From sequence record MF044457: a stretch of 64,000 nt of DNA, one strand, 5' to 3'. This DNA comes from Escherichia phage ST0. Position numbers and translations under genes: made by a program. How positions within the stretch are numbered: the stretch's first letter is position 1; every line of letters begins with the position of its first letter. Below the pieces are notes generated by a model, which saw only the letters and a program-made list of their open reading frames with translations, did not search any database and was not told the origin of the DNA. This document shows positions 5,253 to 59,023 of the stretch, in pieces.

Positions 5253-6151
5253 TGGCTATTTTCCGCGTACCTATCTTGAGTATGCGGTCTTATGAAACTG
5301 GACAGTATGCTATCCTTAAGGATGGCAACTTCCAACTTCATTTGCACCGTGCTAATCCGGGTGATGTGATTACATATCCACGTAATGCATCTGATATTAA
5401 AGAATGTGAACGTCTTTTCCCAGAATTTAAGTTTGTTCCATTATGGTATAAAGATAACGCGTATAACACTCGTAAATATTTCTGGTCTGAAAATGAATTT
5501 GTGGTTGATTCATTAATTGCTTATTATGATTGTGATTTTCTAATCACAGATATCACTGGATACGACGGCGCTTTTGACGTAGAATTCAATTTCAATATCA
5601 CTGCAGACCCTAATAAACCACGTTTTTATATTGACGAATTCTTAAAAACCGATATGTTGTCGGTTAATCGTTCACTTCAAACTACCGTGTTGAATAAACG
5701 TCAAAAGGAAGTGCTGGTTAACGCTGGTGCAGATGGTAATAAGATTATCGTAACGCAGAAAGTTATACGTCCTTCCATCATGCAGCGTCTTGTAGGTGAT
5801 TTGGCTCCTATTCATCTAGATGGTATTTTTCATCCATTTCGAATTAGTGACCCGTGCTATCGTTTTGAACAAGTGGTTGAATGTGCAATTCAATTAGGCC
5901 AACCGCTTTATATAACCGATCCAAATAATAGCTTCGACAGAAATAAGTATCCTGAAGAAGCGCTGATTCGAATTTTTAAACCAACTAAAACTGAGTACTA
6001 TCAAATTCTTAAAGGACGGCCGAAGATTCAATATTTCGAAAATCCTGAAGAAGTATTCCATCCAGGTCTTGGTGAGTTCATCTACTTTAATGCTTTAATT
6101 TCTTCACCGTATAATATACCTAAATACGAAGATGTCGTAATCGAGGAATAA
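5252..6151 (+). CDS. hypothetical protein at the beta-glucosyltransferase locus
   Basis: ORF track 299 aa; start overlaps the stop of the hydroxymethylase gene by 1 nt. No motif recognised. Confidence 0.5.
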   Translation: MAIFRVPILSMRSYETGQYAILKDGNFQLHLHRANPGDVITYPRNASDIKECERLFPEFKFVPLWYKDNAYNTRKYFWSENEFVVDSLIAYYDCDFLITDITGYDGAFDVEFNFNITADPNKPRFYIDEFLKTDMLSVNRSLQTTVLNKRQKEVLVNAGADGNKIIVTQKVIRPSIMQRLVGDLAPIHLDGIFHPFRISDPCYRFEQVVECAIQLGQPLYITDPNNSFDRNKYPEEALIRIFKPTKTEYYQILKGRPKIQYFENPEEVFHPGLGEFIYFNALISSPYNIPKYEDVVIEE

Positions 6152-7973: not shown

Positions 7974-8307
7974 TCTTGATGATTTAAATCTAGAAATCGT
8001 TGATGAATCCCCTTCTTCGGAAGGGGAAGACATTCGCAAAGAACGAGTGTTTAATGAATCTCTTAAAATTATCCGTTCAGCAATGGAAAATGTCATTCAA
8101 GAGATTCTGATTACACTTGAAGATGGTTCTCATCATATAGTCTATATTACAAAACTAGACTGGGTTGATGGTAAAATCGTAATGGACTTTGCAGTTCTTG
8201 ACCAGGACAGAAAAGCAGAACTTGCACCGCATGTTGAAAAATGTGTTACAATGCAAGTACAACAAGCTTTTAATGAACGGACCAAGAAAAAATTTAAATT
8301 CTTTTAA
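7966..8307 (+). CDS. 40: gp40-like head assembly protein
   Basis: ORF track 7945..8307; start moved to ATG at 7966 overlapping the uvsX stop. Position between uvsX and 41 as in T4. Confidence 0.55.
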   Translation: MNNLDDLNLEIVDESPSSEGEDIRKERVFNESLKIIRSAMENVIQEILITLEDGSHHIVYITKLDWVDGKIVMDFAVLDQDRKAELAPHVEKCVTMQVQQAFNERTKKKFKFF

Positions 8308-9759: not shown

Positions 9760-9765
9760 TAAAAA

Positions 9766-9781
9766 GGAGACTTCGGTCTCC
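9766..9781 (+). terminator. UUCG-tetraloop hairpin terminator after gene 41
   Basis: GGAGAC-TTCG-GTCTCC followed by TTTCGGGG. Confidence 0.6.
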
Positions 9782-9847
9782 TTTCGGGGTTTACATCTTC
9801 CTCTAGGCATGATATGATGTACTTACACAAACCAAGAGGAAAACACT

Positions 9848-15579: not shown

Positions 15580-15588
15580 ATAATTTAA

Positions 15589-15615
15589 GGAATCCTTCGG
15601 GATTCCTTTTTTTTT
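15589..15615 (+). terminator. UUCG-tetraloop terminator after soc
   Basis: GGAATCC-TTCG-GGATTCC followed by nine T. Confidence 0.8.
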
Positions 15616-24666: not shown

Positions 24667-25092
24667 ATGGCTTTTAAAGGTTTTGAAGTTGGTAAGAAAT
24701 ATCGTATTATCAAAGGACAGGAAGATAATTTCTTGAGAATTCTTAATACGACTGGTAAACGTCTTAATACTAATCTGCATACTACTTTATTGTCCAAAGA
24801 TTTTATTGTGGAAGAGATGATTGGTTACGGCGTTTCGGTGATTGCTGTAGAAGCCGTAGGCGATTATGGCCGAACTATTCATAGTATGCAAGGTGATATT
24901 CTGCTTTATGGTGCAGAATTTAAATTCTTTGAAGAAGTTCCGGAACCAGATACAGCTGTCGATTTCAAAAAAGGCTCTATAGAATTTGTTGATGGTTCGG
25001 TGATCGTATCAGGCGATGTGGTCATTACAGTTAAAAGTGAACAAGGGCGTTTGGCTGCAATTGATGCACTTCAGAAAATTAAATTTAAATAA
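24667..25092 (+). CDS. hypothetical protein
   Basis: ORF track 141 aa; followed directly by a terminator. Confidence 0.5.
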   Translation: MAFKGFEVGKKYRIIKGQEDNFLRILNTTGKRLNTNLHTTLLSKDFIVEEMIGYGVSVIAVEAVGDYGRTIHSMQGDILLYGAEFKFFEEVPEPDTAVDFKKGSIEFVDGSVIVSGDVVITVKSEQGRLAAIDALQKIKFK

Positions 25093-25109
25093 GGGCTTCG
25101 GCCCTTTTT
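25093..25109 (+). terminator. UUCG-tetraloop terminator
   Basis: GGGC-TTCG-GCCC followed by TTTTT. Confidence 0.75.
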
Positions 25110-25155: not shown

Positions 25156-26973
25156 ATGATTAAAAATGAAATTAAGGTATTGTCAGATGTAGAACATATT
25201 AAGAAACGCAGTGGCATGTATATTGGTTCTTCGGCCAAAGAAGCCCACGAGCGTTTTTTGTTTGGTAAATATCAACAAGTTGAATATGTTCCTGGTCTGG
25301 TTAAATTAATCGATGAGATTATTGACAACTCGGTTGATGAAGCTATTCGTACATCATTTAAGTTTGCAAATAAAATCGATGTGCAAATTAAAAATAATCA
25401 AGTTTCGGTGGAAGATAACGGACGTGGTATTCCTCAAGCAATGGTCACCGACCAAAATGGTGAACAGATTCCAGGTCCTGTAGCTGCCTGGACTATTCCA
25501 AAGGCCGGTGGTAACTTTGGTGATGACTCTGAACGTAAGACCGGTGGTATGAACGGCGTCGGGAGTAGTTTAACTAATATCTTCTCTACGTTGTTTACAG
25601 GCATAACGTCAGATGGCGAAAATGAAATCACTGTTAACTGTTCAAACGGGATGGAAAACAAATCATGGTCTTCTAAGAAATCTAAAGGTAAAGGCACTAA
25701 AGTAATCTTCACTCCTGATTTCTCTTCATTTGAAGAGCATAATTTATCTCAAATTTATTTAGATATTACTTTAGACCGACTTCAAACGTTGGCAGTCGTT
25801 TATCCTGATATCAAGTTCACATTTAATGGTAAAAAGGTTGACGGTAATTTTAAACGATTTGCTAAACAATTTGGCGAAGATAACATCATTCAAGAAAATG
25901 ATAAAGTCTCTATAGCATTCACAACATCACCAGACGGCTTCCGTCATTTAACTTATGTGAATAACATCCATACTAAAAATGGTGGTCATCATGTTGAATG
26001 TGTAATGGATGATATCTGCGAACATCTTTTGCCCGGCATTAAAAAGAAATATAAGGGTATTGAAGTCACTAAAGCTCGTGTTAAAGAATGTCTCACAATG
26101 TTGATGTTTATTAGAGACATGAGCAACATGCGTTTTGATTCTCAGACTAAAGAACGTTTAACGTCAACGTATGGTGATATTCGTAATCATATCCAATTAG
26201 ATGCTAAGAAAATTGCTCAGGCACTTCTTAAAAACGAAGCCTTGATTATGCCTATTGTTGAAGCAGCATTAGCTCGTAAATTGGCAGCAGAAAAGGCTGC
26301 AGAAACTAAAGCAGCTAAAAAGGCAACTAAAGCTAAGGTTCATAAGCATATTAAAGCTAACCAATGTGGTAAAGATGCAGATACGACATTGTTTTTAACA
26401 GAAGGTGATTCGGCAATTGGTTATCTCATTGATGTTCGTGACCGTGAACTACACGGTGGATTCCCATTACGTGGTAAGGTGATGAATAGCTGGGGTATGA
26501 CATATGCTGATATGATGAAGAACAAAGAGCTCTTTGATATCTGTGCTATCACAGGTCTTATTCTTGGTGAAAAGGCAGAGAATACGAACTATCGTAATAT
26601 TGCAATTATGACCGATGCCGATCATGACGGTCTTGGAAGTATTTATCCGGCTTTGCTTGCTTTCTTTAGTAATTGGCCTGAATTGTTTGAACAAGGACGT
26701 ATTCGCTTTGTTAAAACGCCTGTAATTATTGCACAAATTGGCAAAACTCAAAAATGGTTTTATACTGTAGCTGAGTATGAAGAAGCTAAAGATACACTAC
26801 CTAAGCATAGTATTCGATACATCAAGGGATTAGGCTCCCTTGAAAAGTCAGAATATCGTGAAATGATTCAGAACCCTGTGTACGACGTAGTTAAACTTCC
26901 TGAAAATTGGAAAGAACTCTTTGAAATGTTGTTGGGTGATGATTCAGAACTTCGTAAAGAATGGATGTCCTAA
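25156..26973 (+). CDS. 39: DNA topoisomerase II large subunit, genes 39 and 60 fused in one ORF
   Basis: 605 aa; N-terminal GHKL ATPase (LSDVEHIKKRSGMYIGS, IDNSVDEA); C-terminal 130 aa match remembered T4 gp60 (IAIMTDADHDGLGSIYP...KLPENWKELFEMLLGD). Confidence 0.95.
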   Translation: MIKNEIKVLSDVEHIKKRSGMYIGSSAKEAHERFLFGKYQQVEYVPGLVKLIDEIIDNSVDEAIRTSFKFANKIDVQIKNNQVSVEDNGRGIPQAMVTDQNGEQIPGPVAAWTIPKAGGNFGDDSERKTGGMNGVGSSLTNIFSTLFTGITSDGENEITVNCSNGMENKSWSSKKSKGKGTKVIFTPDFSSFEEHNLSQIYLDITLDRLQTLAVVYPDIKFTFNGKKVDGNFKRFAKQFGEDNIIQENDKVSIAFTTSPDGFRHLTYVNNIHTKNGGHHVECVMDDICEHLLPGIKKKYKGIEVTKARVKECLTMLMFIRDMSNMRFDSQTKERLTSTYGDIRNHIQLDAKKIAQALLKNEALIMPIVEAALARKLAAEKAAETKAAKKATKAKVHKHIKANQCGKDADTTLFLTEGDSAIGYLIDVRDRELHGGFPLRGKVMNSWGMTYADMMKNKELFDICAITGLILGEKAENTNYRNIAIMTDADHDGLGSIYPALLAFFSNWPELFEQGRIRFVKTPVIIAQIGKTQKWFYTVAEYEEAKDTLPKHSIRYIKGLGSLEKSEYREMIQNPVYDVVKLPENWKELFEMLLGDDSELRKEWMS

Positions 26974-26988
26974 GCTCCTTCTGGAGCT
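26973..26988 (+). terminator. hairpin after gene 39/60
   Basis: AGCTCC-TTCT-GGAGCT followed by TTCATTTTAATTTT. Confidence 0.5.
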
Positions 26989-27015
26989 TCATTTTAATTT
27001 TAATAAGGCTTAATT

Positions 27016-31597: not shown

Positions 31598-31620
31598 GGG
31601 GACTTCGGTCCCCTTTTTTT
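31598..31620 (+). terminator. UUCG-tetraloop terminator after rIIB
   Basis: GGGGAC-TTCG-GTCCCC followed by seven T. Confidence 0.8.
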
Positions 31621-33760: not shown

Positions 33761-34064
33761 TGAGGTAATTAAAATGGTAGCATGGATTATTGCATTGCTG
33801 TGTTGGTCGTTTTTATTCGTTAACACTTTAGTTACAGGCGAAACAACAGTATTTCAACAGGCTGTGTCACAAGGTACCTTAGCGGTCTTAGCTCTTCTTA
33901 ACGTATTAAAAGGCGAGCAATGATTAAGAAAATCTTAGCAGGAGCCTTCGGGCTCTTGTTTTTGCTTACGGTTCTGTACTACGGTGTGATGTTTGGGCTA
34001 ATCCAAGTAGTGCTTTTCATTTCAGATGTTATAATGGTTATTCGTTCATTAATATGGTGAAAAT

Positions 34065-35390: not shown

Positions 35391-35466
35391 GTGCCCTAGC
35401 CTTAGGATTTCTCGGTGCAATAGCTGCACTAGTGATTTGGCTGTATTGGTTGGACAAACATGATTA

Positions 35467-35486
35467 GGGAGCTTCGGCTCCCTTTT
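35467..35486 (+). terminator. UUCG-tetraloop terminator after gene 52
   Basis: GGGAGC-TTCG-GCTCCC followed by TTTT. Confidence 0.75.
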
Positions 35487-39345: not shown

Positions 39346-39897
39346 TTACTTAAAGATATTTATAATCGCTTTGACAATAGATTTGTTTTCAAGGTCAGGG
39401 AATTTAGGGAATTCACCGCCAAGATGTTCATGCTTTTCTAAAAGGGCAAAGAATTTTTTGAGCTCTTTATATTTTCGTTTTTCTTCTCTATTAGCAACCT
39501 CTGCGTCAATAAGAGAATTTAAAACACTGAATAATTTATAGAGTTCATGAATTTTCTTATCACGTTGAACTACGCGTTTATATGCTTCATCTTCCTTCCA
39601 CCCGTCGCCGGTCCAAATGTCAAATTCACCAGGTTCTTCTGTAGTAACATTTTGAAGAGCACCTGGTGTGTCAATAACAATTTTTTGCTTATCATAAGTC
39701 CATACTGTTTTTCCACGATGGTCTTCAACATATACCCATTCTTGCTCGCGTTCGTCAAATATAACAGCATAGCCTTCTTTAGGGTCTAAAGGTTTTTTTG
39801 GTGTCGAATGAGCCGGAAATCCTACGCCTTTTAATGGTTTATAATTTTCTTCTTTGTAAAATTCTTTAGTGTCAAAATAATAGTGATAGAGTTTCAT
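39346..39897 (-). CDS. 38: gp38 distal tail fibre assembly chaperone (T4 type)
   Basis: 183 aa; MKLYHYYFDTKEFYKEENYKP...FALLEKHEHLGGEFP matches remembered T4 gp38. Confidence 0.92.
   Translation of the reverse strand: MKLYHYYFDTKEFYKEENYKPLKGVGFPAHSTPKKPLDPKEGYAVIFDEREQEWVYVEDHRGKTVWTYDKQKIVIDTPGALQNVTTEEPGEFDIWTGDGWKEDEAYKRVVQRDKKIHELYKLFSVLNSLIDAEVANREEKRKYKELKKFFALLEKHEHLGGEFPKFPDLENKSIVKAIINIFK
39357..39364 (-). promoter_or_regulatory. late promoter TATAAATA for holin t
   Basis: Minus strand reads TATAAATA, then AAGGAGGT RBS and ATG of t. Confidence 0.6.
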
Positions 39898-39906
39898 ATT
39901 ATAAAA

Positions 39907-39920
39907 GGGACAGAAGTCCC
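39907..39920 (-). promoter_or_regulatory. hairpin between Shine-Dalgarno and start codon of gene 38
   Basis: Minus strand: GGAG right after the gene 37 stop, then GGGAC-TTCT-GTCCC, then TTTTATAT-ATG. Confidence 0.55.
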
Positions 39921-39926
39921 TTCTCC

Positions 39927-42900
39927 TTATGCTAAACGAACGATATAGTTAAAAGCAACGTTTTTAACTGTGTTTTCTGTATTACCTGTACTATTTACAG
40001 TGATAGTATGACCGTGCGAACCAATAGCTACTGAATGAGTGTGAGCGCCAATACCTACGGTGTGAGTATGAGCGCCAATACCTACCGTATGCGCATGGTT
40101 GCCTGTGGTGCTAGTAGTACCAGACCAACTATGGGTGTGGGCACCATCATTTGATGTTTTACCGACCTTAGTTGCTAAAGTCGAACCAGTGATACCTGAG
40201 TTAAGTTTAGCGTATGCGTTTGCACTTATCGTAGTAACCCCGTCTCTAAACAAATCGTCTGCCCATGCAGCAGTGACCTGTGGACCTGAACGCGTGTGTT
40301 GGTGAGCACCAGCGGAACTAGTATTACCACTCACTGTATGGCTATGGTTGCCAGTGGTATTACTGGTCTTAGTACCATAATCAAAGCTTGAAGTCGTTTT
40401 GCTACCGTAATCAAAACTTGACGTATTTTTAGTACCCAAATCTGTGTTTGATGCACTTGCACTATGGCTATGTGACTTAACACCGTCTGCTTCTGTACTT
40501 AATACAGCACGACCAGATGGTTTACCCTTGATAGTTTGACCACGCATATCAGGCAGAGTGCCGGAAGGATACACTGCAGCTAACTTAGGATACAAGCCAG
40601 CATCAAATGTTTGACCTTCCATTATGGCATAGCCTTCAGGAGGTGTATCAGTAGGCCAAGGAATCGGAGCACCAATCGGGTAACTCGAGACAATATCCGT
40701 CTTAAGGTTATTTATTGTGGTATTCAAGTTAGCAAAATTACCAGAACCACCAGTGATATTACCATCAGTACCAATACGAACATTACCAGCGCCTAATTTA
40801 CCAGGAGAATAAAAATCACCGTTTTTATTAAATTCCCATCCAAGATCCTTTATAACAGCACCAGTAGAAACGCCGTCACCACCTTCGTGATAATGAACTC
40901 TAAAGTTACCACCATTAATTAAAGTACCAATAGAATAGCAACTATTATTTTGAACGTATCTTTGTTTCACAATAGGAACATAAGTGCTTGTATCGGTTCT
41001 ATCTATATTCATGTAGAACGGAGCACGAACGTTTTCATTATTTTGTGAAGCAAAAGAACCAGCTCCAGCAGGTCGTGCAGTATCAGTACATTCAGCGTCG
41101 ATATATGCCGATTGTCCTAATTGCATACGGTAATTAGGAGAAATGCGACTATGGCTAGTTATAACAACAAGTTTATTATCATTATCAACGGTCACCATAT
41201 TACCGCCAGCACCGTCATCACCTAACGTAACAGAATGGCGCATTTGAACCATACCATTATTAAGACTAATACTTAGTGGACGGAGATTACTTATTCCACC
41301 ACTTTCACCTGCATCTTTAAGTGTAGGTATAATATGCAAAGACGCTTCAGAACGACGGAAAATAGCTCCATATTCAGCATTGTAAATACGGAAAGCATCT
41401 GCGGTATTACCGATTTTAACTTGACCGGTAATAGAACCGCCACCGGATAAAACAAGCCCGTTATCCATAGTAACTTGTCCGGATAATGCACTTAATCCAT
41501 TAACTCTAAGACTTCCATCGGTGATAATGCTCCCTCTAGCATTAACTTGTCCATTGAACTGGGTTACAACAGGTCCCACAGTTTCTGAATCGGTTGGAGC
41601 TATGCGCTGAGAATAAAAATAATATCCCTGCCCGTCAGCTACTTCAAAAACTGTTTCACGAGTACGATCGCCGGATGCGTTAAATGAATTACCCCATGCT
41701 TTAACAGTTACGTAGCTTTTATTCTGCCCAGCACGAGTACCACCTTCCCACAAAATTTGCTTAGTGCCATCAACTGTAGTAGTTGGAGCGAATGTTAGCC
41801 CGGCAGTAGAATTATTAGCTGCTAAATATACACCATTATATATTGAAAGCTGCTTAGTGGATGTAATACCGCCATCAGCATAAAACATCACATTATTTGC
41901 ACCGGTTACCAATTTCAAAATACCCGGGTTAATTTCCATACCTTGTTGGGTATTGATATTCATCTGACCTGTACCACGGAAATAATGGGAAAATTTACCG
42001 CCAGAATTATATCCAATGTGGGTTTGACCATCACCTGCATTGTTTGTATCAGCCTGGGTTTGAACCGATAAAAGCGCGGCGTTGGTTCCAGGCATTGTCC
42101 AGGTTCCGCCTTGGTCTTCTGAGCGTCCAAATAATGCTTTACGAGTACTACGGAAACTATCAGGAGTAATAGAAGCAACAGAATTCCAATTACCTACTAA
42201 ATCATAAACGCCTTGCTTAATATATTTTAAACCAGTTGCAGCATCGCCCAAAGCAATATATCTTTCTCCCATTGGAGTAGGAGAGCCATAGTTGTTAGTA
42301 TTTTCGTCAGCAGTAATTGTGCCAATAGCAAGTGAACGACGTAATACCATTGCGCCATCATTACGAAGACCCATTAATTTAGTAGTAAGTGTATTTCCGG
42401 TCCACCAAGAAATTTCATCGTTCTTACCAGTTTGAGCTGAAGCGATTTCATGGTAAATAGTTCCGCCTGATTTAGCTCGAACTTTACGAAGATAGTTTAT
42501 ACCATTTTCTTCACCTGTTCCAGGATAAACATATTGAACTAATGATTGTGAATCATATTGTCCGAATGCCTTTGTATCTAAAATAATATTTTTAGTATTA
42601 ATCTGAGGTGAAGTAATATTTCCGAGAGCTGCAATATTTCCAGATGTAGTTATACTACCTCCTGATACTGCTAAACCTCCGCCGTCAACAGTAAATCCGC
42701 CGTCGCGTCGAAACGTCCAATATTTCGAATCGCCAGATTCATTGATATAATGAATCTTCAACGAACCTTCAGAAACTAAAGTACCTAATGAAAAAGTTCC
42801 ATCTTTAAAGCGTTGTTTAATTATAGGATTATATTCCGAAGTAGCGGTTGATGCGGAAATATCCATGAAAATAGGGGCTTTTGCCGTGTGTTGACCTGCC

Positions 42901-43199
42901 CAAGAACCAACTCCGGTGGCCTTATAAGCAAATTCGATATATCCACCAGATGCAACATTTTGTGAGCCTATTAAATTAAATGTACCTGTCTGAGTATAGT
43001 TACCTACGTGAGTTACATTACCGTTAATATCGCCGCCTTTAGCAAAGCCTAGGCTAATAATATTACCGAGGTCATCTTTAGTAAAAAGAGTTCGATCTTT
43101 TAAGTTTATCGCTAATTCGCCTTCGGCTAATTGTGCTGCAGTAGGATTAACTCCTGCCACTTTGCTTCTTTTAAATTGTATCTGTTTTAATGTAGCCAT
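39927..43199 (-). CDS. 37: gp37 long tail fibre distal subunit
   Basis: 1090 aa; N-terminus [13 protein letters not shown]...; C-terminal His-x-His repeats ([34 protein letters not shown]). Confidence 0.95.
39995..40100 (-). repeat. tandem nucleotide repeats encoding the His-x-His units of gp37
   Basis: GTGTGAGCGCCAATACCTACGGT and GTATGAGCGCCAATACCTACCGT are adjacent near-identical copies. Confidence 0.6.
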
Positions 43200-43207
43200 A
43201 AGTCCTC

Positions 43208-43873
43208 TTAATAATAGCCGAAATCTTGAACAGAATCTTTAATTACAATCTGGTCGAAACGAGGAACATGATTAGCCTCAGACGCCGGATTCTGTGAGAA
43301 AAAGTTTGGTGCTGTTAAAGTACCAGCCATGGTATCGCCAGAACGCAATACACGGGAATTTGCGTTATCTGTAACAATATTTATTCGTCCATCAACGTAA
43401 TCTTTTCTTGTGAGATCATTTGCTGCAACCGGAGCAGTCATATCGCTTCTTACTTGTCCTGAAGCAGATACAACGCCTTTTGTACTAATATCGCCATTAC
43501 GTGTGTTAATTACAACAGTTCGAGCTGCTGAACCTTGCGATGATTTAAAACCAATACCATTCCACGAAACAATATCGATATTTGCTACAGCAAAAGTAGC
43601 ATTATCACCGTTACCTGGATAAACGCCGCATGGGTTTGTGTTGTTTACAGCATACGGAACTTGAACGCCACCGTTAAATGTTACCTTTGATGCATACGTA
43701 CCACCATTAGCTTTAGAAACGAAATCATTATCAGCCGCTTGTGGTTTATTATATTCTGAATAGAGTTTAAACGTTTTATACAGGACGTCATCACCTGCTG
43801 GCATTAAAGGGAAATTACCTTGATGCCATATGACAGCACCGCCAGTTGTACTACCAGCTTTTAAATCGGCCAT
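43208..43873 (-). CDS. 36: gp36 tail fibre hinge connector
   Basis: 221 aa; position and length as T4 gp36. Confidence 0.9.
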
Positions 43874-43897: not shown

Positions 43898-43905
43898 TAT
43901 TTATA
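43898..43905 (-). promoter_or_regulatory. late promoter TATAAATA for gene 36
   Basis: Minus strand reads TATAAATA about 25 nt upstream of the gene 36 ATG. Confidence 0.55.
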
Positions 43906-43935: not shown

Positions 43936-45063
43936 TTATTCCGATGCTTCTTTAAATTCTTGTCCAAATACCTTACCAGTATCAGTTGAAGATTGAGTAG
44001 GTAATGTCATTATGTCTGGGGCACTTAAAGATTCTGAAACATAATTTACACGAATACCATTTATACCAAACTCGGCAGGTTTTGAAACGCTTCCATTACA
44101 TGATACTTCAGTGAATATAACGTTTCTTAATCCACCTTGCCCGACTGGAGCTGTACGATAACAATAAATCGTGAACCCGTCAGCACCAGCAGGAATTTCT
44201 ACGTAGTCTTCATATATCTTCCATTCACCTGCGGCCCCATCAAAGTTTGTATCTTTAAATGAAATAGGTGAAGTAGAAGGAGATTTAAAGAAACGAATAG
44301 AAAGTCGTGTCGTCCCTTGTGCTAACAAATCAGCATCGGCCATTAGTTGGAATTTCATATAAAGGAAATCTCCAGGCTTCAATTTATACCCAGCGAGAGG
44401 TGTAATAAGGGATGTTGTAGGCATCCTTTTAATTTCATTATTAGTACCTCCAACAGCAGATAAAAATGTGTCTGTCGATTCGTACGTACGACTAGGGAAG
44501 CCGGTAGCACCAATATCATCGATCGTGTCGTACACAACATCAAGTGGTGTACTATAGTCGGTTGAAGTTTTCTTATTACTATACTTAATATGCTCTAGTG
44601 CTATAGCATTCTTACCAGAAATATAAAATGCTGAATAAGAAATGTCCACTATATTTAAAACTTGTTGAGCTAATGGAATAACAGAACTCCCAGCTTTAGT
44701 AAACCACGCAAGAACTTCTGGCGGAAAGTTTGTTTTAGCGTTAGTAACAAGAGCAAATATAAAATTAGAAGCGTATGTGTCCATGTAAGTAACAAATGCA
44801 CTTGACGTGGCGTCGTTTTCAGTAGAGAAATTATATGACTTAGATTCAACTACTGCACCTGTTGTAGGATTTATTACACGAACGTTTAATCCAACAGAAA
44901 AAACCTGGGACCCAAGTGGATTATCTTGGAACTTAATATAAGCAGGAGATGTTGATAGCGGGCAAGAGCCCGCTATGCTTAATTTAAATCGTACTGAATT
45001 GCTTTCCGATAAAAATGGCGTTTGGACGTATCCTTGTCCGAACTTAGCCATAAATTTTTCCAT
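43936..45063 (-). CDS. 35: gp35 tail fibre hinge protein
   Basis: 375 aa; position and length as T4 gp35. Confidence 0.9.
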   Translation of the reverse strand: MEKFMAKFGQGYVQTPFLSESNSVRFKLSIAGSCPLSTSPAYIKFQDNPLGSQVFSVGLNVRVINPTTGAVVESKSYNFSTENDATSSAFVTYMDTYASNFIFALVTNAKTNFPPEVLAWFTKAGSSVIPLAQQVLNIVDISYSAFYISGKNAIALEHIKYSNKKTSTDYSTPLDVVYDTIDDIGATGFPSRTYESTDTFLSAVGGTNNEIKRMPTTSLITPLAGYKLKPGDFLYMKFQLMADADLLAQGTTRLSIRFFKSPSTSPISFKDTNFDGAAGEWKIYEDYVEIPAGADGFTIYCYRTAPVGQGGLRNVIFTEVSCNGSVSKPAEFGINGIRVNYVSESLSAPDIMTLPTQSSTDTGKVFGQEFKEASE

Positions 45064-52242: not shown

Positions 52243-52264
52243 GGGAGACTTCGGTCTCCCTTTT
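52243..52264 (+). terminator. UUCG-tetraloop terminator after gene 32
   Basis: GGGAGAC-TTCG-GTCTCCC followed by TTTT. Confidence 0.8.
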
Positions 52265-57407: not shown

Positions 57408-58586
57408 ATGAGTACAGTTTTTAACACACAACAAGTCGATGTTTTGAATGAACCGATGTTCTTTGGTTCTGGTCTTGGTATTGCGCGTTATGATATTCAA
57501 CGCCATAAAGTTTTTGAAGATTTGACCGAAAAGCAATTATCATTTTTTTGGCGCCCAGAAGAGGTAAACTTGATGTTGGACTCTGCGCAGTTCAATAAGC
57601 TTCCTCAGTTCCAACAGGACATCTTTACAAACAATCTTAAGTATCAATCATTATTAGATTCTATCCAAGGCAGGGCCCCGTCTGCGGTACTTATGGCACT
57701 GATTTCTGACCCTTCATTAGATACATGGGTTGCAACATGGACATTCAGTGAAACTATTCACTCTCGTTCGTATACTCATATTATGCGAAATCTTTATACT
57801 GATCCATCCAAAGTATTTGATGAGATTGTATTAGACGAAGCAATCATGAAACGAGCTGAATCAATAGGTAAATATTACGATGATGTTCTGGTTAAAACTC
57901 GTTATTGGGAAAACGCTAAAGCTGATATCGAATACCAAAAAGAAATTAATGCAGACGAAGACGTTATTGAAGATGCTATTGAGCATGAGACATATTGGAA
58001 GCGTGAGCTAATGAAATCTCTTTATCTCTGTTTGCATGTTATCAACGCCTTAGAAGCTATTCGTTTTTACGTATCATTTGCATGTACCTTTAACTTCCAT
58101 AAAAACATGGAAATTATGGAAGGTAATGCAAAGATTATGAAGTTCATTGCTCGTGACGAACAACTCCACCTCAAGGGTACTCAGTACATTATCCGTCAAC
58201 TTCAATCTGGTACTGATGGTGATGAGTGGGTTCAAATTGCTAAAGAATGTGAACAGGAAGCAGTTGACATTTTTATGGAAGTAAATAGACAAGAGAAGGA
58301 ATGGGCTGCACATCTCTTTAAAGACGGTACATGCCCAGGTATCAATACACAGAGTATGTGTGCTTTTGTTGATTACTTGACTGTGTCTCGTATGAAACAG
58401 TGTGGTTTGCCATGTCCAATTACTGATGCTCCTACAAAGCATCCGTATCCTTGGATTCGTGAATATCTGAACTCTGATTTAGTTCAAGCAGCTCCTCAGG
58501 AAGTTGAAATCAGTTCTTATCTTGTCGCACAAATTGATAATGATGTAGACCAAAATGTAATCAATTCATACAAAAAATATTTCTAA
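57408..58586 (+). CDS. nrdB: NrdB ribonucleotide reductase small subunit, uninterrupted
   Basis: 392 aa continuous ORF; di-iron ligand regions (TFSETIHSRSY, FIARDEQLHL). Confidence 0.95.
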   Translation: MSTVFNTQQVDVLNEPMFFGSGLGIARYDIQRHKVFEDLTEKQLSFFWRPEEVNLMLDSAQFNKLPQFQQDIFTNNLKYQSLLDSIQGRAPSAVLMALISDPSLDTWVATWTFSETIHSRSYTHIMRNLYTDPSKVFDEIVLDEAIMKRAESIGKYYDDVLVKTRYWENAKADIEYQKEINADEDVIEDAIEHETYWKRELMKSLYLCLHVINALEAIRFYVSFACTFNFHKNMEIMEGNAKIMKFIARDEQLHLKGTQYIIRQLQSGTDGDEWVQIAKECEQEAVDIFMEVNRQEKEWAAHLFKDGTCPGINTQSMCAFVDYLTVSRMKQCGLPCPITDAPTKHPYPWIREYLNSDLVQAAPQEVEISSYLVAQIDNDVDQNVINSYKKYF

Positions 58587-58589
58587 GGA

Positions 58590-58603
58590 CGGGACTTCGG
58601 TCC
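58590..58603 (+). terminator. UUCG-tetraloop hairpin after nrdB
   Basis: GGGAC-TTCG-GTCCC; weak T tract. Confidence 0.5.
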
Positions 58604-58612
58604 CACTTTATT

Positions 58613-59023
58613 ATGAAAGATATTGCCGCCGAATATTCCTTTATTAAATATACAGAATTGGAGCTATTAGAAGATGCAACAATTAAAACAGTTGATGTCC
58701 CTAATAAGAAAAATGTCATATACGCTATTGCTATAGATGACGAACTTGTGTATATTGGTAAAACCAAGAATTTAAAGAAACGCATTAACTATTATCGAAC
58801 AGCCATAAATCGAAAAGACCAGACTTCAGATTCAAGAAAATCTCTTATGATTTTGGATGCCTTAATGCAAGGCAAAAAGGTTGAATTCTGGGCCCGCCAA
58901 TGTTTTGACCTTTCAGTCACCAACGAACTTGGTTCAATGACCATCGCAACAATGGACCTTGAAGAACCGCTTTTTATCAAAAAGTTCAACCCGCCTTGGA
59001 ATATCCAACATAAGAAAAAGTAG
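58613..59023 (+). CDS. denA: DenA endonuclease II (GIY-YIG family)
   Basis: 136 aa; IYAIAIDDELVYIGKTKNLKKRINYYRT carries the GIY-YIG core; C-terminus LFIKKFNPPWNIQHKKK matches remembered T4 EndoII. Confidence 0.85.
   Translation: MKDIAAEYSFIKYTELELLEDATIKTVDVPNKKNVIYAIAIDDELVYIGKTKNLKKRINYYRTAINRKDQTSDSRKSLMILDALMQGKKVEFWARQCFDLSVTNELGSMTIATMDLEEPLFIKKFNPPWNIQHKKK

Follow-up and report, generated by a model that had tools for sequence, protein, structure and literature searches.

How does a ribosome find the start of gene 38 when the only strong Shine-Dalgarno (SD) sequence ahead of it lies 25 nt away, on the far side of a GC-rich hairpin? The question is raised by the window analysed here, a 64,000-nucleotide stretch from Escherichia phage ST0 (MF044457), at the junction of two genes carried on the minus strand. 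The upstream gene, taken from the ORF list and matching Pfam Collar and Phage_fiber, encodes a gene 37-type long tail fibre distal subunit of 1090 aa (39927..43199), and its homologues are annotated by their depositors as long tail fibre distal subunits. The downstream gene, gene 38 (39346..39897; ORF list, Pfam Caudo_TAP), encodes a T4-type tail fibre assembly chaperone of 183 aa that in tblastn searches shares 67.6% identity with T4 gp38 and 95-99% with about 100 phage records. Pfam matches identify the neighbours as gp36 upstream and the T holin downstream, and the 24 kb around the site share 95-98% identity with Mosigvirus-type phages such as PNJ-6, p000y and mar005P1. Judged by its sequence, the window is that of a T-even (Tevenvirinae) phage and the site is its gene 37/38 junction.

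Read directly from the window, the minus strand runs GCA-TAA-GGAG-AA-GGGAC-TTCT-GTCCC-TTTTATAAT-ATG-AAA-CTC. The gene 37 stop codon TAA (39929-39927) forms part of the SD sequence UAAGGAG (39923..39929), whose GGAG occupies 39926-39923. Two A residues (39922-39921) separate GGAG from the hairpin core (39907..39920), which is supported by folding and covariation and consists of GGGAC (39920-39916), a UUCU loop (39915-39912) and GUCCC (39911-39907). The tail between the core stem and the AUG (39898..39906; RNA UUUUAUAAU) is rich in U and A and holds no SD-like sequence, and the gene 38 start codon of the ORF list follows at 39897-39895. The first-pass annotation had the order of stop codon, GGAG, GGGAC-TTCT-GTCCC, tail and ATG right, apart from the AA between GGAG and the stem, which it missed; the tail that it gave as TTTTATAT is in fact TTTTATAAT, and the SD-to-start distance that it gave as 24 nt is 25 nt from GGAG to ATG. 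Four U follow the stem in the window and in PNJ-6 (39903-39906, minus strand), and five or six in the other close relatives read; this 1-nt length difference in a homopolymer takes the linker from 8 to 7 nt in the window and PNJ-6.

Scanned against the 16S 3′ tail ACCUCCUUA, UAAGGAG (39929-39923) is the best anti-SD site in the region, with a 7-bp duplex of -9.0 to -9.3 kcal/mol. Within 0-14 nt before the AUG the same scan found no 9-mer better than -3.5 kcal/mol, and that best one lies inside the stem; there is therefore no canonical SD at normal spacing, and the earlier view that the SD stands too far from the start codon holds at the corrected distance. Nor does the reading frame offer a different start: between the preceding in-frame stop and ATG 39897 the ORF list has no other start codon, and the tblastn alignment with T4 gp38 starts from residue 1 of the 183-aa ORF. 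A hidden canonical SD and an alternative start codon were both rejected, neither being present in the anti-SD scan or the ORF list.

The transcription context constrains what the hairpin can do. On the minus strand of the window, a motif search finds the T4 late-promoter motif TATAAATA only at 39364-39357, 43905-43898 and 48985-48978. The copy before gene 36 (43898..43905) is the nearest one upstream of gene 38, and with no copy in the space from the gene 37 stop to the gene 38 AUG, transcription for gene 38 must pass through the hairpin. The copy at 39357-39364 falls within the gene 38 3′ end and precedes the holin (t) start codon, ATG 39336, by 21 nt, and the depositor of phage SA35RD annotates TATAAATA at the homologous position in the gene 38 end. 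Further upstream, the space between gene 35 (43936..45063) and gene 36 (43208..43873) holds a 7-bp hairpin, GGGAGAC-TTCG-GTCTCCC (43930-43913, minus strand), followed by ATTTTTG, then TATAAATA (43905-43898) and, ahead of the gene 36 ATG, an AAGGAG at normal spacing; this element looks like a terminator and then a late promoter driving genes 36-37-38.

RNA folding, which the first-pass annotation had proposed as a check, predicts a stable hairpin at the site. The 14-nt core alone folds at -7.7 kcal/mol (z -2.70), the isolated 18-nt form with 7 bp at -10.2 kcal/mol (equalled by 0 of 200 shuffles), a 36-nt segment with a 9-bp stem at -13.2 kcal/mol (z -2.86; equalled by 2 of 200 shuffles) and a 66-nt segment at -15.9 kcal/mol (z -2.42). 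The 9-bp stem ranges from -12.2 to -13.2 kcal/mol, z scores across the forms tested run from -2.4 to -4.0, and the core has a pairing probability of ~1.0 in a 101-nt context. The extended 9-bp hairpin, AGAAGGGAC / GUCCCUUUU (39903..39924, minus strand), appears in both the minimum-energy and the centroid structures, and its two lowest pairs, A-U and G·U, involve the final AG of GGAG. In every variant the unconstrained minimum-energy fold pairs 2-3 nt at the 3′ end of GGAG with the U tract, and the hairpin could therefore partly mask the SD; the AUG is predicted to be mostly paired, in weak A/U helices. A UUCU loop is expected to be without the special stability of C(UUCG)G, and the energy model used treats the two loops in the same way. 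Hairpins of the class to which the core belongs (at least 5 bp, at least four G-C pairs, tetraloop) number 38 on both strands of the window, against 11.7 +/- 3.4 in dinucleotide shuffles, and the shuffle background gives a chance rate of ~1e-4 per position per strand, or roughly 0.002 expected in the 29-nt spacer.

Several other readings of the RNA were set aside. The whole window gave no Rfam match at gathering thresholds, with local matches of at most 21 bits and E values of at least 0.6, and a curated RNA family was rejected, none being present in Rfam. An outer helix between CAUA at the end of gene 37 and UAUG at the start of gene 38, suggested by the 66-nt and alignment folds, was rejected as evidence because it is coding-invariant and without covariation, and CUUA disrupts it in SP18 and LF82-41. 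A weak hairpin joining the AUG to downstream codons differs in T4-type sequences and is confounded by coding. Cleavage of GGAG by RegB was likewise discounted: late transcripts as a whole are resistant to RegB according to a review, in which structure is also said to protect, and the sequence 3′ of GGAG misfits the GGAGRAYARAA consensus.

The hairpin is conserved well beyond close relatives of the window. The 60-nt junction is identical in Escherichia phage PNJ-6 and is found at 80% identity or more in 206 phage records, T4 among them. From these, 29 homologous junctions were read, mostly from GenBank phage records of Tequatrovirus, Mosigvirus, Gaprivervirus and Dhakavirus together with metagenomic contigs, and they reduce to 14 distinct variants; IMG/VR and metagenomes gave the small yield of 2 and 4 loci. 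The hairpin is present in all 29 junctions across the four genera, UAAGGAG is unchanged in 29/29, all 14 variants retain UAAGGAG, hairpin and AUG AAA, and the gene 37 stop codon lies within the SD in every homologue read. Across the 14 variants each of the 70 cells of the 5-bp core is paired, whereas slid registers are all worse, and none of 500 shuffles matches the pairing or covariation score. The fourth core pair is G-C in seven variants, A-U in five, C-G in one (LF82-41) and G·U in one (G53), and its A-U form is found in the window type and, within a different sequence context, in SP18, which argues against one inherited event. Covariation support is modest because only one of the five core pairs varies. 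The loop is UUCG in most homologues and UUCU in the window and its close relatives, with UUUG and UUAU elsewhere.

When the SD and the AUG are held single-stranded, a further regularity appears. In all 11 variants folded under this constraint the helix starts directly behind the SD, with 0 unpaired nt on its 5′ side, and a linker of 6-8 nt separates it from the AUG, over raw SD-AUG gaps of 22-26 nt; in the window, the constrained 35-nt fold has a 7-bp helix at 39922-39905 (-10.9 kcal/mol), in which AA is paired to UU, and a linker of 7 nt (39904-39898). A constant residual linker is what the bridging model predicts, and a mere "punctuation" hairpin would not require such constancy. The abutment of helix and SD would also allow coaxial stacking on the SD/anti-SD helix.

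A precedent for this arrangement exists in T4, and the parallel with gene 38 drawn in the first-pass annotation is borne out by two papers. Uzan and Miller (PMC3014915) describe T4 genes 38 and 25 as having extended SD-AUG spacings made functional by intervening RNA structure, which in gene 38 cuts the spacing from 22 nt to 5 nt. In the passage of Aseev et al. (PMC7297116) devoted to these sites, the ribosome-binding sites (RBSs) of T4 genes 38 (Gold 1988) and 25 (Nivinskas 1999) carry stable hairpins between SD and start and are called "noncontiguous or split", and a positive effect on translation is for gene 38 only "suggested". The mutational and DMS-probing support belongs to the gene 25 case, in which destabilising mutations reduce translation according to the part of the review that treats it (PMC3014915). 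There, at the gene 26-25 junction, a stem-loop between SD and AUG changes the effective spacing from 27 to 11 nt (Nivinskas et al. 1999; Malys & Nivinskas 2009, via PMC3014915), and the same part of the review has the split RBS conserved among close T-even phages. The gene 25 junction, which falls outside the window, is likened to our site by description; it joins other genes and has an unrelated sequence and a larger structure.

Comparison with the T4 reference genome, the second check proposed for the site, shows the same layout at the same junction. T4 gene 38 reads TAAGGAG-A-GGGGC-TTCG-GCCC-TTCTAAAT-ATG, with a 22-nt gap. T4 and the window share the gene 37-stop/gene 38-start junction, the SD UAAGGAG overlapping the stop, a GC-rich 5-bp tetraloop hairpin right after the SD, an A/U-rich linker of 6-8 nt and AUG AAA, and over the 60 nt around the junction they are ~87% identical. 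The window differs in its raw gap (25 nt as against 22), in having two A rather than one between SD and stem, in the fourth pair (A-U instead of G-C), in a UUCU loop where T4 has the extra-stable UUCG, and in the tail, UUUUAUAAU rather than UUCUAAAU; the gp38 proteins are only 67.6% identical. Nucleotide identity to T4 peaks at the junction, with 95% there and 42-75% in the flanks; it is 87-95% from the last ~110 nt of gene 37 to the first codons of gene 38 (39861-40040, minus strand), as against 42-60% deeper in gene 37 and 60-78% deeper in gene 38. Mosaic junctions were also seen: in JK36 and AV117 a T4-type junction goes with a window-type gp38, and slur14 joins a T4-type stem to a window-type tail. 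The junction may also be a recombination linker for swapping tail-fibre modules.

T2 offers an instructive variation. Its junction (AP018813, locus 6045-6095) reads TAA-AA-GAGGGC-TTCG-GCCCTC-TAAGGA-TTTTTA-ATG, and so resembles the window in having a hairpin, here C(UUCG)G, ahead of gene 38 and a few nt past the gene 37 stop. In contrast to the window, the SD UAAGGA comes after the hairpin at a normal 6-nt spacing, and the RBS is not split; T2 gp38 is an unrelated adhesin, and the gp37 C-terminus is different as well. Since the T2 hairpin coexists with a normal SD, a hairpin at this junction can be kept without a bridging role, for RNA stability, attenuation or folding.

By position and sequence, the site in the window is orthologous to the T4 gene 38 split (noncontiguous) RBS, here carried by a Mosigvirus-like T-even phage, and we think it likely that it works by hairpin-bridged initiation. 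The site combines a remote strong SD, no proximal SD, a stable hairpin, a functional residual spacing, an orthologous position and a compensatory change, the features that define a split RBS. The first-pass annotation had been ready to abandon this idea on finding a canonical SD and an unstable hairpin; the scan shows no such SD, and the hairpin is predicted to be stable. We propose that gene 38, having no promoter of its own, would be read from the late gene 36-37-38 transcript, in which its sole SD, UAAGGAG, would be too far from the AUG, at 25 nt, for normal initiation. The intervening RNA would fold into a GC-rich tetraloop hairpin beginning at the first nucleotide after the SD. Pairing of the 30S subunit to the SD would open the weak A-U and G·U pairs at the base of the stem, while the 7-bp hairpin stays in place, looped out, so that ~7 nt of single strand would be left between the helix base and the AUG, a functional spacing. 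From the T4 literature we infer, by analogy, that the hairpin promotes gene 38 initiation. Because it is the orthologue of a described T4 feature, the element counts as already known in kind and is not a new kind of element.

Small hairpins recur throughout the window. UUCG-loop hairpins lie on the plus strand at 8008-8027, 9763-9784, 15587-15608, 25091-25106, 31598-31613, 33937-33960, 35466-35483, 52243-52260 and 58591-58604, and a tenth lies on the minus strand at 43930-43913; mostly they stand a few nt past stop codons, often with U runs after them. Their abundance fits the known C(UUCG)G richness of T4 intercistronic RNA, a discovery of Tuerk et al. in 1988 as recounted in the portion of PMC4371310 that deals with it. 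The gene 37/38 hairpin resembles these T4 elements as a small GC-rich intercistronic tetraloop hairpin, and most homologues of the site carry exactly C(UUCG)G; it differs from them in the UUCU loop of the window and in separating an SD from its start codon, where the others simply follow a gene. Another UUCU-loop hairpin, AAGCTCC-TTCT-GGAGCTT (26972-26989, plus strand), overlaps a stop codon 26 nt before the next ORF start (among ORFs of at least 80 aa) and has GGAG in its 3′ arm, which might be a masked or remote SD.

A second junction in the window has a split-RBS-like layout. Between nrdB (57408..58586) and denA, which encodes endonuclease II of 136 aa (58613..59023), the plus strand reads TAAGGA-C-GGGAC-TTCG-GTCCC-ACTTTATT-ATG (58584-58615, hairpin 58591-58604). 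The SD overlaps the stop codon and stands 23 nt from the AUG, and no proximal SD was found at this junction. The same layout is present in T4, JS10, Klebsiella AM_K5 and MY02, CC31, Serratia CBH8, Erwinia Cronus and UPEC07; the junction is conserved in nine genera, with all cells paired and three of the five stem pairs covarying. The public annotations of T4 strain 147 and JS10 begin denA within the stem, at a GTG or ATG whose frame is not kept in other phages. For T4, PMC3014915 and PMC7297116 name split RBSs only at genes 38 and 25, and our search of the searchable literature, a body that leaves older T4 papers outside, found no description of one at denA. We tentatively raise the possibility, which we hold to be open to considerable doubt, that a stop-embedded UAAGGA(G), an abutting hairpin, a 6-9 nt A/U linker and an AUG constitute a recurrent, selected Tevenvirinae design.

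The abundance of such hairpins suggests another function for the one at gene 38, which may chiefly be generic T-even intercistronic "punctuation", acting as a 3′-end stabiliser, partial attenuator or folding nucleus, with the upstream SD merely tolerated. The roughly threefold enrichment of GC-rich tetraloop hairpins in the window (38 against 11.7 +/- 3.4) is in keeping with this, as are the ten UUCG-loop hairpins, most of them right after stop codons and with U-rich tails, the hairpin and late promoter between genes 35 and 36, and the hairpin that T2 retains after gene 37 though its SD comes later. Some depositors label the hairpin a terminator, and sequences of the window type have 4-5 U after the stem. 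However, with no promoter motif before gene 38, efficient termination would abolish an essential chaperone; the U tract of T4-type variants, UUCUAAAU, is poor, and a terminator scan made no call at the site. In the minimum-energy structure the window's four post-stem U pair with AGAA, and the gene 38 AUG comes 9 nt after the core stem. An efficient intrinsic terminator was set aside on the negative scan, the lack of a promoter before gene 38 and the weak U tracts of T4-type variants, and the hairpin is unlikely to be one, because gene 38 must be read from RNA transcribed through it. A punctuation role is compatible with bridging and not exclusive of it, but as the main function it leaves the abutment of helix and SD, the constant 6-8 nt linker and the absent proximal SD unexplained, and we regard it as unlikely.

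Two further proposals concern the ribosome more directly. Since the stop codon lies inside the SD, in every homologue, reinitiation may contribute, and gene 38 might even be translated mainly by ribosomes that finish gene 37, stay tethered through the SD and restart at the AUG 29 nt downstream, with the hairpin shortening the path or blocking independent entry. A stop-overlapping SD is seen at the nrdB-denA junction of nine genera as well, and, to go by ribosome footprint size, a ribosome that terminates at the end of gene 37 would cover the SD and unfold the 5′ side of the hairpin. The published T4 model, on the other hand, is one of de novo initiation on a split RBS (PMC3014915, PMC7297116), and in T2 the stop codon lies outside the functional SD; termination-reinitiation is compatible with the bridging model rather than opposed to it, and we think it quite improbable as the main route. 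Alternatively, the hairpin could be a throttle, in which pairing of the SD 3′ half and a stable helix keep the catalytic chaperone gp38 low relative to the structural gp37. In the minimum-energy folds of all variants AG or GAG of GGAG is paired, these bases having unpaired probabilities of 0.01-0.2, the unpaired probability of the AUG is low, and the T4 record annotates gp38 as an assembly factor, not a virion component. Yet the SD is covered by weak pairs, with a step of only ~2 kcal/mol between the 7-bp and 9-bp forms against the -9 kcal/mol of the SD/anti-SD duplex, and loss of the hairpin would leave the SD at a distance of 25 nt and make initiation worse, not better. Taken with the gene 25 mutations, which in the relevant part of PMC3014915 lower translation when they destabilise the structure, these points make a throttle very unlikely, and hairpin-bridged initiation on a split RBS is the reading that we prefer.

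Recognition of the split RBS has consequences for annotation: it fixes the true gene 38 start and explains translation without a proximal SD. Depositors and gene finders mislabel the hairpin as a terminator, and at the phage 55 locus a 3-nt "RBS" is annotated at 789-791, inside the loop and 3′ arm. The hairpin of O157 typing phage 3 gains an in-frame ATG from its UUAU loop and one extra U, and gp38 as annotated there is extended by 6 codons. Starts annotated inside hairpins, for gp38 in this phage and for denA in T4 strain 147 and JS10, are probably mis-called.

If the design shared by the two junctions is real, denA would be a third, apparently undescribed, split RBS, and the common geometry would point to stacking of the hairpin on the SD/anti-SD helix or to SD-tethered reinitiation; as an alternative to any specific mechanism, the ribosome may simply tolerate the hairpin. 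For gene 38, our analysis extends what was a T4 curiosity to at least four genera and adds a regularity to it, in that the residual linker is 6-8 nt whatever the raw spacing between SD and start codon.
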